Below, piece by piece: positions 1,341-17,827 of a stretch of DNA of 64,000 nt. Position 1 is the first letter of the stretch, and the number at the start of each line of letters is the position of its first letter. The DNA is taken from contig CAVNZM010000013.1 of NCBI GenBank assembly GCA_963693365.1, positions 5,322,640 through 5,386,639 of the forward strand, read 5' to 3'. The DNA is from Amoebidium appalachense. Lineage: Eukaryota; Protista; Ichthyosporea. The position numbers and the translations under genes are program-made. Below the pieces are notes generated by a model. It was not told where the DNA came from, ran no database searches, and was given only the letters and a program-made list of their open reading frames with translations.

Positions 1341-4300
1341 ATGTCGATACAAATAGCAGATCCGGGTGCAGGACTGACAGTGGATCAGTGTGTCTTGCTC
1401 ATGGTGAGTAGAATTTGCCCAAAACAAGTCGCCCAAACTCATACACGCACCCACGCACGCACACGCGCACAACCAGCATGATTTCCTTGCCGGGCTTTCC
1501 TTTCCATGCGCCCCCCCCCCCCCCCCCCCCCCCCCCGCAAAAAAACAAAACAAAAAACAACAAACCCCCCTCCCCCTCCCCCCCTCCCCCCTCCCCCCAC
1601 GTGCACACACACACGCACACACACACAAACACACACAAACATTCATTCATTATATATAATCGCAAGTATATACTACAACTGCAACTGCCCAAAAGCCAGC
1701 CCCCCGTCCCTTGCCTTGCAGTCACCATCACGATCAGTGGGTGCCACTAGTCGACACACCCACAATTCAGCAAGCATCTCAGAGTCCTGATTTTAGATGT
1801 GCTGTTACAGGCACAAGCACCCCCGGCACCTGGTGATATGGCATGCCTCACACTCACACGGGCCTTGTGATGCACACGTACCACACACACACATACGTTG
1901 ACGTTCACGGCTAGATGTACACCGTCACACACAAACGAACAACCATACACCAACGGACGTGTGCACACCAGCGCATGGACACATACACAAACACACACGC
2001 ACCCACACCCACACATGCCCGTGCGCACACAAGCACACACACCGAGCGCATGCGCACACACACAGACTCACACGCACGGGGACACGCACACACTTACATA
2101 CATACACACGCACACACACACACACACACACACACACATAGACATAGGCGCATGTACGAAGGAACATACACAAGAACATGCATACGCGCACACACACAGA
2201 TACACACACACACGTGTGGCACACATACACACACAGACACAAACACACACAGGCATAGTAAAACACACATACCCGGTCACAAACACATACACAGTCAAAC
2301 ACAGATACACAGTCACAAACACACACACACACACACACACACACACACACACACACACACACACACACACACACACACACACACACACACACACACACAC
2401 ACACACACACACACACACACACACAAACACACGCGCACGCACGCACGCACGCACGCCCGCGCGTGCGCGAAGCCAACAATCTCACATCCCAATTGTGCCT
2501 CAACATGCACGCAGCTGTTACCCTGCACACCTATCCCGTTCACCTCCTTTTGGGCAAGTGTGCATAAACCGCACGCACAATGAACAAAGTTGCTTTTCTA
2601 CATACGCACTGACTTTGGCACACACCCTATGCTATCCAAATGTATGCATAACATTTTTGCATTTTTACATATCTCTTTTTTATTTGAAAACACCAAATAG
2701 AGCACCACACATATATATCATCTCTCATTATGATATACGTGACATCCCACCAGTGAGGCGTTATTTGAAAAAATACTTATGGAGGCATACCCCCATGCAG
2801 GCAATATGGAAGAAAGTGCTGGAACCTGGGGAGGGGCAGACAGCCTCACAGGTGTTCAACGAATTGGCCGAGTTGTATGCAGAGAGATGCATGATAATGA
2901 CACCACATGCACGGGTAGGCGGCACAGACACATATACGAAAATACATATACGGACACACGTGCGTGCCCGTGCATGCATACACACATGTGCACACACACA
3001 ATGCACACACACATGCACAGATACACACATGCACAAGCTTGCACACACAAATACATCCGCAATCATCCAGTCAAACAGGCACCGTACACGCACACACACA
3101 CACACACACACACACACACACACACACACACACACACACACACACACACACACACACACACACACACACACACACACAAACACACCAACAAACACACACA
3201 CACACACACACACCAACAAACACACACACACACACACCACACACACACATGCCTACACAAACATTAACAAAGACAGACAAGCACACACACACACATAAAT
3301 GCATGCACATGCACACACGAAAACACACACATCATGCGCACATGCACATGTGCACACACCCAAACGTGCTCACCCACCTACCCACACATACACACGCATA
3401 CACACGCACACACACACACACACACAACACACACACATGCACACACACATACACAAACACACCACACACACACACGCACACATACACGCAAACACAAACA
3501 CACACACACACAGACACACACACACCGTGTCACGCACATGCACACACACACACACACATACATGCATGACCCACATGCTCATGCATGTGCGCACAGATGC
3601 ATACACGCGCAGGCACATGTTATAGATTCTTCATCATGTGCACACCCACAAGTGCACACCGTACGCGTATGCACCACACCTTGTACATACCCACACAGAC
3701 AGGGGCAGATTATCTTGCCTGCAACAAAAAGAAAATGGAACATCTACGAAAACCCCCCATACACGTCCTTCAACCTCTCCCGTTCCCCTTCTCCCTGACA
3801 AAAAAACAAACGGAAATGCTGATAAATGCAGTAGAAAAGTAAAAAGATGACAGAACATACCAAACGTTTTGAACAGCCGCCCAGGTTTTTTTATGACACT
3901 AACTGGTAAACAATGGCACAGTCACAATTAGAGCAAGAGGAGATAAGGACCAAACTCCTACAGGGCATATCTACACATGTATTTGATAATGTGTTTGCAA
4001 ATTCAAGGGGGATAGGGCAACACAGAGCAAAGGTATGCACACGCGCATACATGCACACACACACACACATGCGTGCGCGTGCACACACCCACGCACATAC
4101 ACAGATACCTGCACACACATACATGCACACATGCACACATGCACACACACACACACACACACACACACACACACACACACACACACACACACACACACAC
4201 ACACACGCATACACACACACACACACACACACACACACACACATGCACTCGAACACGCCCACACACACACAGACATGCACACACGAACACACACGAACAC

Positions 4301-16300: not shown

Positions 16301-17827
16301 TACACACACACACACACACACACACACACACACACACACACACACACACACACACACACACACACACACACACACACACACACACACACACACACACACA
16401 CACACACACACACACACACACACACACACACACACACACACACACACACACACACACACACACACACACACACACACACACACACACACACACACACACA
16501 CACACACACACACACACACACACAGCCACCTCCGACACCACTGCCAGCAATGTAGTAGATAAGATCATGAAAGGTTTTGATGGCACCTCTGCAAGTAAAT
16601 TCTGTCTTTACAAAAAGGATGGTGGCGCTCCAGACGGTGGTAATTAATTATACAACCCCCCCCCCCCCCCCCCTCCCCCCCTCCCCCCCCCCCCCCCCCC
16701 AACCCTCACCATGACTTGGGCCCTTCCTGAGGATGGGCTCTGCTTATGACGCATATTGTGCGCATTGCTGATGTTGCATACTTGAATGTTTGCCTTTGCA
16801 TGTGTCCTGCACCATGCTTTTCTCATCGTGTATGTGTACTTCGTACCGTGTTCCGCATTCAGCCCCCCCCCCCCCTCCCCCCCCCCCCCCCCCCCCCGCC
16901 GCCGGGATGGAGTCTACTTATGATATTGTTTGTATGTGCTTCCATTTCTGCATTCCACCCTAAGCTATGCATCACCTTCTCCGTCGTACCCTTGTACTCC
17001 AAATTAGATCTTAAAATAGACAAGAGAATACTCATCCTCGAATTAAGGTTGTGGTACCCGCTTATCGCTAATCGGCTTTTTTCGACCAATCAACAGGGCC
17101 GGAATTTGTCCAAATAAAGGAAGACCAGCTGATGCTCAGCATGATCAGAGATGCACCCTTTATCGAGGTAACCATTGGCTCAGCCCCCCCAGTAAATTAA
17201 CCTTACTTGGAAGGTGCATGGTCTTGACCGAGAGAGTGTGTGAGAAGAGAATGGGGAGGGGTAAGAGGGGGAGGGGGAGGGAAGGGCGAAGATGGAGAAA
17301 CAGGTGGAGAGCTGGGGCGCGCCGGGGGGAGGCGGGGAGGGGGGGGGGGGGGGGGTCAGGTTAGAGGGAAGCTTTTGAGGGAAGTGGTTAAGCGGGTGTA
17401 TGGCCTAGAACGGATTGATCTAAGGATAATCCTAGAAGGGGTGTTTTAGAACGGGTTGATTTAGAACTTGGTTAGGGGTTGAGTACGTGTGGGTGTAGAA
17501 TCTGAAACACACGTGAAGGGAAGGGAGGAGAGCGCAAATAATGCACGTGTTTGTGTGTGTGTGTGTGTGTGTGTGTGTGCGTGCGCGTGTGCGCGTATGT
17601 GTACCGCTGTGTGACGTGTGTGCCTGTATATGTGCCTGTATGTGACTGTATATGTGCCTGTATATGTGCCTGTATGTGACTGTGCGCGCGCAGGCAGAGT
17701 TGGTGGATGGGTGGTGGTGGTGTTGTGGGGTTGGGGAGTTATATAGAGAAAGCGGAAATGTGTCATTTGCTGATTTGCTCCGATGCTCTTTCCACAGTTG
17801 TGGATCAAGACGGCAACAGTTGCGTAA
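1341..17827 (+). CDS. Tandem di-globin protein with C-terminal Ras-association (RA/ubiquitin-like) domain, ~694 aa, 19 exons
   Basis: Phase-consistent GT-AG exons: 1341-1403, 2801-2914, 3922-4032, 5517-5684, 6485-6599, 7310-7464, 8686-8796, 9261-9374, 10156-10332, 11244-11361, 11956-12016, 12683-12735, 13928-13992, 14414-14612, 15021-15184, 15772-15853, 16526-16639, 17097-17167, 17798-17827 (sum 2085 nt, ends TAA). Globin 1: [47 protein letters not shown]. Globin 2: [62 protein letters not shown]-like: [42 protein letters not shown]. The globin and RA exons are firm; the linker junctions at 11361-13928 are less certain. Confidence 0.75.
16719..16850. repeat. Dispersed repeat family A, copy 1 (intronic)
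   Basis: GGCCCTTCCTGAGGATGGGCTCTGCTTAT..TGCTGATGT..TACTTGAATGTTTGCCTTTGCATGTGTCCT..CCATGCTT..CTCATCGTGTATGTG matches 30431-30554. A more diverged copy lies at ~45880-45980. Confidence 0.8.

Follow-up and report, generated by a model that had tools for sequence, protein, structure and literature searches.

A tandem-globin protein with an RA-like C-terminal domain in the ichthyosporean Amoebidium, a candidate effector of Ras-family GTPases

Amoebidium is an ichthyosporean, a unicellular relative of animals, and a stretch of its genome raises the question whether a heme globin can be joined to a Ras-family GTPase within one protein, and in which direction such a connection would run. The stretch (hereafter the window) comprises 64,000 nucleotides of Amoebidium appalachense contig CAVNZM010000013.1 (assembly GCA_963693365.1, positions 5,322,640 to 5,386,639 of the forward strand). 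A gene at window positions 1341-17827 had been read, in what we call the original prediction, as a globin-globin-RA protein that wires gas or redox sensing to a Ras-family GTPase. Our analysis points to a likely Ras-family effector, in which a degenerate globin and an intact one are followed by a low-complexity linker and by a ubiquitin-fold domain that would bring the likely heme-loaded globin to the membrane. We give this reading an even chance of being right.

One gene and one transcript

The 19 exons (1341-17827, + strand) join to 2085 nucleotides encoding 694 amino acids (aa) with a single terminal stop, GT-AG borders are present in 18/18 introns and an in-frame stop sits upstream of exon 1. 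The open frame of the original prediction was rebuilt exactly, and the model protein is identical at 694/694 residues to EP00123_Amoebidium_parasiticum_P011874 in EukProt (hereafter P0001), a cluster of one that derives from the Trinity transcript comp20955. An alternative donor at 16636, which also keeps the frame, was discarded because P0001 uses 16639. The introns had been described as rich in microsatellites, and runs with units of one or two bases indeed make up 4357 of their 14402 bases. The features of the gene are:

1341-1403 (+): exon 1, start codon, N-terminus and first half of globin-1 helix A (aa 1-21); P0001 match and upstream in-frame stop
2801-2914 (+): exon 2, globin 1 helices A-C (aa 22-59), W24 kept and Ala48 at B10; repeat alignment
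3922-4032 (+): exon 3, globin 1 CD-E region (aa 60-96), Leu62 at CD1 and Arg68 at E7; repeat alignment
5517-5684 (+): exon 4, globin 1 helices F-H (aa 97-152), Ile105 in the F8 column and His106 directly after it; alignments
6485-6599 (+): exon 5, end of helix H and post-H extension of repeat 1 (aa 153-190)
7310-7464 (+): exon 6, inter-globin linker and start of globin-2 helix A (aa 191-242)
8686-8796 (+): exon 7, globin 2 helices A-C (aa 243-279), with W245, His267 (B9), Tyr268 (B10) and Pro276 (C2)
9261-9374 (+): exon 8, globin 2 CD-E (aa 280-317), with Phe282 (CD1), Arg289 (E7) and Leu293 (E11)
10156-10332 (+): exon 9, globin 2 helices F-H (aa 318-376), with His330 (F8, codon 10192-10194), Tyr341 (G5) and Trp367 (H8)
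11244-11361 (+): exon 10, end of helix H and post-H extension of repeat 2 (aa 377-415), donor 11361 used; X1 and X2 contigs
11370-11372 (+): in-frame TAG within intron 10, skipped in the contigs
11956-12016 (+): exon 11, Ser/Pro/Thr-rich linker (aa 416-435); X1 and X2 contigs
12683-12735 (+): exon 12, linker (aa 436-453)
13928-13992 (+): exon 13, linker with YxxL motifs at 466 and 471 (aa 454-475)
14414-14612 (+): exon 14, Lys/Glu/Arg-rich helix (aa 476-520) and linker
15021-15184 (+): exon 15, linker with RxRxxT (558-563) and poly-proline (aa 542-596)
15772-15853 (+): exon 16, RA-like strands 1 and 2 (aa 597-623), with 616-623 as the predicted Ras-pairing strand; model and co-fold
16526-16639 (+): exon 17, RA-like helix 1 and strand 3 (aa 624-661), Lys636 and Lys639 in the predicted interface; model and co-fold
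17097-17167 (+): exon 18, RA-like strand 4 and short helix (aa 662-685); contigs and model
17798-17827 (+): exon 19, last strand and stop codon (aa 686-694); contigs

The original prediction had all domains on a single transcript. Runs X1 and X2 each contain one contig in which the match to exon 10 ends at the donor at 11361 and the next 30 letters are those that open exon 11 (from 11956). The TAG at 11370-11372 occurs in no X1 or X2 contig, and the main form in these runs does not end there. In X1 and X2, exon 19 and the preceding end of exon 18 lie on contigs that agree in length and depth with those carrying exon 10 (1082 and 2490 letters). Exons 10 and 19 are separated by 809 letters in either run, exactly what exons 11-18 add up to. 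On the X2 contig 1464 letters precede exon 10, of which exons 1-9 would take up 1128, leaving 336. Run X3 gave no match for the globin gene. X1 and X2 come from one sample of one study and their status as RNA was guessed, yet the records are spliced; contigs of this kind drop rare forms. The globin gene is real and all domains are on one transcript, as shown by the P0001 match and by contigs that run from exon 10 into exon 11 and on to exon 19 at the expected length.

Two globin repeats

Globin 2 (about aa 233-384) reaches 26.7 bits on Pfam Globin (PF00042; cut-off 22), and its closest solved relatives are neuroglobin and Hell's Gate globin I (E about 0.002). It was compared with 76 globin domains cut from phmmer matches, with helix labels set by alignment. 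Globin 2 aligns in normal A-H order and keeps W245, Y268 (B10), F272, P276 (C2), F282 (CD1), L293, L326, G327, H330 (F8), Y341 (G5) and W367 (H8). Its residues at B10, C2, CD1, F8, G5 and H8 are those of the majority in the set; the column of H330 holds His in 76/76 domains and that of F282 Phe in 75/76. We used F8 His, CD1 Phe and helices in order as globin criteria, as given in the available part of PMC4101818; PMC4081604 gives family definitions. We place globin 2 in the F family; its heme pocket is preserved and it likely binds heme. Two positions deviate. Arg289 occupies E7, where the 76 domains have Gln (56), His (19) or Leu (1) and Arg in none, and His267 occupies B9, where Phe (57) and Met (12) are common and His is found in 0/76. 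Our literature search found no paper on an arginine at E7 of globins.

Globin 1 (about aa 12-156) aligns to globin 2 with 29% identity over 168 columns (E 5e-16), and 0/2000 shuffles scored as high. On a profile built without P0001 it obtained 18.3 bits, compared to 8.9 for the best of 1000 shuffles (750 of which reported a score). Three introns interrupt the same aligned codon in both repeats (21/242, 59/279 and 152/376) and a fourth is shifted by about four codons (96/317). Phase 1 is found at the end of exon 5 as well as of exon 10, so that exons 6-10 form a phase 1-1 block. Taken by its alignment, globin 1 is a tandem duplicate. Arg at E7 is common to both repeats and is therefore likely older than the duplication.

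The pocket of globin 1 is poorly preserved. In the register of the repeat alignment its B10 is Ala, CD1 and H8 are both Leu, and F8 is Ile, with His one residue later. CD1 would be Leu62 in this register or Met55 in the alternative register of the profile, and it is Phe in neither. Ile105 aligns with H330, and His106 could serve if helix F bulges; spacing of the LGxxH type occurs in 74/76 homologous domains and LGxxxH alone in 0/76. Both motifs in which the original prediction placed a proximal His (LGNAIH and LGKQH) are present; H330 of LGKQH is the true F8, and H106 of LGNAIH falls one residue past it. Since PheCD1, TyrB10 and TrpH8 are lost and the His is out of register by one, heme binding by globin 1 is doubtful. 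It has probably lost heme while retaining the globin fold, and is more likely a heme-free partner domain. The two globin folds proposed earlier hold in that both repeats are globin-derived, but globin 1 is without most heme-pocket residues.

The alignment-free model of the full-length protein had a low predicted local distance difference test score (pLDDT 39) and gave weak Foldseek rows, so that both globin folds rest on the sequence. A quick tree placed globin 1 on the longest branch (4.09); it grouped globin 1, globin 2, a 405-aa protein discussed below (P0032) and two other long rows weakly (76), and this grouping is not usable. Behind each repeat, a separate exon encodes an extension of about 25 residues (6485-6599 and 11244-11361), and the two extensions are related. 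The second one contains His391-Cys392-Phe-Cys394-Pro395, which we take to be a possible redox or heme-regulatory site.

Linker, C-terminal domain and predicted Ras complex

The linker (aa 416-600) had been described as rich in Ser/Pro and in Lys/Glu, which its composition bears out: Ser, Pro and Thr make up 38-41% on both sides of a 45-residue stretch (aa 476-520) that is 69% Lys, Glu or Arg. A helix at 481-515 within this stretch is the only confident part of the full-length model. Furthermore, the linker contains YxxL twice, RKSS, RxRxxT and poly-proline; chance occurrence is expected for such short motifs and they are leads only.

For the C-terminus, Pfam reported only two families, RA_2 (PF21989, E 0.015) and RA (PF00788, E 0.064). 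The RA cut-off was missed and the domain is therefore filed as RA-like, not as a member of RA. Hence the Pfam comparison for Globin and RA that was suggested with the original prediction came out in part, with Globin over its cut-off for globin 2, RA under its cut-off and globin 1, searched alone, unmatched. The alignment-free model of aa 601-690 has the order strand-strand-helix-strand-strand-helix-strand of a beta-grasp (pLDDT 49). The three best Foldseek rows were, in this order, the RA domain of NORE1A, the Ras-binding domain (RBD) of RalGDS and the RA domain of RalGDS (E 0.007-0.011, 19-21% identity), closely followed by UBX, PB1 and further ubiquitin-like folds. Geometry-only alignment (VIA) gave two lists that are both topped by PB1 (Z 7.2-7.9), tied with UBX, SUMO and others if rows within 1 Z are counted as ties, and no RA row was among the top 50 VIA rows. 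PB1 is absent from the Pfam report on the C-terminus, and identities are 4-14% for the PB1 rows of the VIA lists versus 18-22% for the RA rows of Foldseek. A sequence search of the PDB with aa 596-694 found nothing but a ferredoxin fragment (E 1.7). We regard the beta-grasp fold class of residues 601-690 as secure. As to family, the domain is RA-like on sequence, and geometry does not settle it. The ubiquitin-fold, RA-like C-terminus of the original prediction is thereby retained, as beta-grasp proteins fill the Foldseek and VIA lists and RA tops Pfam.

We co-folded aa 598-694 with GTP, Mg and a stand-in Ras (an open reading frame from metagenome contig L031). The score was 0.76, compared to 0.00 for the best of 3 controls, runs agreed on at least 81% of contacts and the partners had pLDDT values of at least 78. 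The mark used here is reached by 51/78 solved complexes and 2/108 mismatched pairs, in a calibration made with proteins free of ligands, and for eukaryotes by 39/65 solved pairs that have no older look-alikes and 2/126 unrelated pairs. In the predicted complex strand 616-623 lies along Ras 36-42, with contacts of D38 to K619, K620 and T621, of E37 to T621, of S39 and Y40 to V618 and of D33 to K636, which places the basic residues K619, K620 and K636 at Ras contacts. In Ras-effector complexes the central site consists of E37, D38 and S39 in an antiparallel sheet, according to the part of PMC5147862 available to us, and the predicted contacts fit this central recognition region. Ras-RA complexes have been solved many times, and the pass may therefore be memory; it indicates likeness to known complexes, and Ras binding is predicted only.

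A possible Ras effector and its alternatives

As an effector, the protein would bind GTP-loaded Ras or Rap through its C-terminal domain, with strand 616-623 predicted to pair with switch I. Active Ras or Rap would pull the likely heme-loaded globin 2 to the membrane, where globin 2, with TyrB10 and ArgE7 on the distal side, may handle O2, NO or an anionic ligand or perform redox chemistry at the recruitment site. Globin 1 may serve as a structural partner in a heme-free pseudo-dimer, and YxxL, RxRxxT and poly-Pro in the linker could take phosphorylation or partner binding. The protein would then be a coincidence point at which Ras activity sets the place and time of heme chemistry. What makes a protein a Ras effector, by the definition in the accessible part of PMC7915224, is a ubiquitin-like domain with which it binds Ras-GTP. 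No GEF, GAP, kinase, cyclase or reductase family was found in the protein with Pfam or NCBIfam. RA domains are modules of the effector side, and with GEF, GAP and kinase domains not found, the direction from Ras to globin is the simpler one. The recruitment reading is supported by an independent protist protein with globins and PH, another membrane-recruitment module.

Several points weigh against this effector reading. Firstly, the C-terminal domain scores under the curated RA cut-offs (14.3 vs 21 and 15.8 vs 27 bits), its model is of low confidence (pLDDT 49) with no Foldseek match at E 0.001, and PB1 comes first in the geometry-only alignment (2g4s; Z 7.8, root-mean-square deviation 2.4, 80 residues aligned). 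Secondly, the co-fold used a stand-in Ras, for a type of complex that has been solved often, and its controls contained no non-binding beta-grasp domain; moreover, of ten human RASSF proteins only RASSF5 binds classical Ras, as stated in the available sections of PMC11316025. Thirdly, neither Arg at E7 nor His at B9 is normal, which could be a sign that globin 2 is decaying too, and the protein is without a fused reductase to recycle ferric heme. Lastly, no orthologue was found and hence residue conservation could not be compared.

The original prediction had the opposite direction, in which the ligand state of globin 2 opens or hides the RA-like domain, so that Ras-GTP is sequestered or partners are scaffolded only at certain O2 or NO levels. 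This is possible and can coexist with recruitment, but we consider it unlikely. It gains from the predicted Ras interface, which beats its controls, and the tandem globins could be the dimer through which such sensors signal. N-terminal globins with a C-terminal interaction domain also resemble the layout of globin-coupled sensors (described in the consulted part of PMC7475203). Still, about 190 low-complexity residues between globin 2 and the RA-like domain make a poor allosteric path, no catalytic output was found with Pfam or NCBIfam, and the globins match the F family and not the S family.

It is likewise conceivable, though improbable to a similar degree, that the C-terminal domain binds no Ras or Rap at all and is PB1-like or an RA fold for another GTPase or a peptide, the protein being a globin scaffold in another pathway. 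The missed RA cut-offs and the lead of PB1 in both VIA lists favour this, and many RA domains bind other GTPases (PMC11316025, in the same sections). The lower identity of the PB1 rows, the ties among VIA rows from a weak model, and the lysines K619, K620 and K636 at predicted Ras contacts speak against it.

That both globins are heme-free or nearly so, and act as helical modules for interaction or dimerisation within a scaffold of the Ras effector type, seems rather remote. Globin 1 did lose CD1, B10 and H8 and sits on the longest tree branch, and globin 2 has the unusual His B9 and Arg E7. However, F8 His, CD1 Phe, C2 Pro, B10 Tyr, G5 Tyr and H8 Trp are all retained in globin 2 while the sister repeat lost several of them, which indicates selection on the globin 2 pocket. 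Finally, two genes or a chimeric assembly, with a two-domain globin that terminates at the TAG at 11370 and an RA protein encoded on its own, are highly improbable: read-through of donor 11361 does reach this in-frame TAG after three codons, and a minor short isoform could be among the rare forms that contigs drop in transcript evidence from maybe one study, but the spliced X1 and X2 contigs run from exon 10 to 11 and on to exon 19 at the exact expected length, and the Trinity-derived protein equals the genome model.

Turning from these alternatives to the Ras effector we favour, its architecture can be set against described globins. In the chimeric globins known so far, the globin is coupled to kinases, cyclases, chemoreceptors, reductases or a calpain-like domain. 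The Leishmania globin-coupled adenylate cyclase is reportedly a chimeric eukaryotic globin. Androglobin and the multidomain globins of Guillardia also hold globins inside larger eukaryotic proteins (PMC7475203 and PMC4101818, in the parts accessible to us). Their partner domains are calpain and IQ in androglobin, cyclase in Leishmania and cytochrome b5 in Guillardia, and a Ras-binding module is named for none in these parts. The outputs listed in the available text of the globin diversity review (PMC7475203) are methyl-accepting chemotaxis protein (MCP), kinase, diguanylate cyclase, adenylate cyclase and gene regulation, and the word 'GTPase' occurs 0 times in it. An androglobin identity was rejected, as Pfam found no calpain family and globin 2 has the normal A-H order and is not circularly permuted. 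So was a flavohemoglobin identity: no C-terminal reductase family, nor any FAD/NAD(P)H reductase family elsewhere in the protein, was found by Pfam, and flavohemoglobin matches were limited to the globin part.

Globin-coupled sensors of the S family (HemAT; kinase, cyclase and regulator fusions) are alike in having an N-terminal 3/3 globin and a C-terminal signalling module (PMC7475203, as far as available). In contrast, the Amoebidium protein has two F-family or neuroglobin-like globins, one of them degenerate, and a non-catalytic eukaryotic effector module behind a long linker. Pfam reported no Protoglobin family at E up to 1, and neither Pfam nor NCBIfam found MCP, kinase, cyclase or regulator output domains. 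The likeness to globin-coupled sensors that was drawn earlier is not upheld, since the globins fall with F-family single-domain globins and neuroglobin. With the F-family single-domain globins (Hell's Gate globin I, Vitreoscilla haemoglobin) and neuroglobin, globin 2 shares TyrB10, PheCD1, HisF8 and TyrG5; it differs from them in that E7 is Arg (not Gln or His), B9 is His, the AB and EF corners are longer, and it carries a post-H extension within a multidomain host of 694 aa. With the RA-domain effectors RalGDS/RGL and NORE1A/RASSF5 the protein shares a far C-terminal beta-grasp, which they lead in the Foldseek ranking, and the predicted antiparallel pairing with switch I, whereas identity is about 20%, the Pfam cut-off is missed, no GEF or SARAH match was found and globins are present instead. 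Altogether, this suggests a protein that works like a Ras effector and contains an F-family globin, a variant of the chimeric globins that stands outside the S-family globin-coupled sensors.

A further architectural parallel is P0043 of Pyxidicula operculata (EukProt EP01125_Pyxidicula_operculata, 718 aa), which is globin-PH-globin-PH and thus combines two F-type globins with membrane-recruitment modules. It has PH instead of an RA-like domain, its similarity to P0001 is confined to the globins and it is uncharacterised. P0043, which has a shorter isoform (P0025), is a second, unrelated fusion of globins to a eukaryotic signalling module.

Orthologue searches were word- or cluster-limited and absence is not proven by them: exon 9 found only P0001 among 8 candidates of 105-2000 aa, and aa 596-694 only P0001 among 55 candidates of 381-1215 aa. 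A phmmer search of 1.84 billion representatives gave 38 other matches, all centred on globin 2; none of these matched aa 596-694, and Pfam found an RA family in 0/38 (29 at E 0.01 and 9 at E 0.5). Like the original prediction, which knew of no described globin+RA architecture, our literature searches found none, with most subscription journals and supplements (and possible protist globin tables in them) outside their reach. Among single proteins, P0032 (a Logan contig, 405 aa) has a single globin with a long AB corner like the repeats and a partial post-H extension, followed by a low-complexity tail. It aligns to both repeats (E 3e-13 and 4e-7) and is a possible member of the same subfamily; no RA match and no relative of it were found, Atlas matches being globins below 0.9. 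P0002 (JGI/IMG, 2461 aa) has 14 near-identical globin repeats, and its cluster has a member of 3326 aa.

Elsewhere in the window, a convergent neighbour at about 20880-25650 (-) is a spliced indoleamine 2,3-dioxygenase (IDO)-like gene (Pfam IDO E 1.2e-8 and 0.0012 on two exons). By family it encodes another enzyme of heme and O2 and it ends about 3 kb from the stop of the globin gene, which is probably chance adjacency. Further along, open stretches in more than one frame at about 52700-54830 (-) resemble a 3'-5' exonuclease domain followed by a P-loop ATPase, and exons at about 58560-60740 (-) have ankyrin-repeat-like sequence, the families being judged by eye in both cases.

A further-reaching reading, less probable than the effector reading as such, is that this is the first heme-protein Ras effector: a globin that would bind Ras-GTP directly, with its O2 or NO state coupled to small GTPases, an Arg-E7 pocket and a built-in pseudo-globin partner. 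So far it appears as a single-species invention, known from one species and with a function that is predicted only. If true, it would be a direct connection between heme-gas chemistry and the Ras/Rap switch, in a lineage that is used to study the origin of animal signalling.

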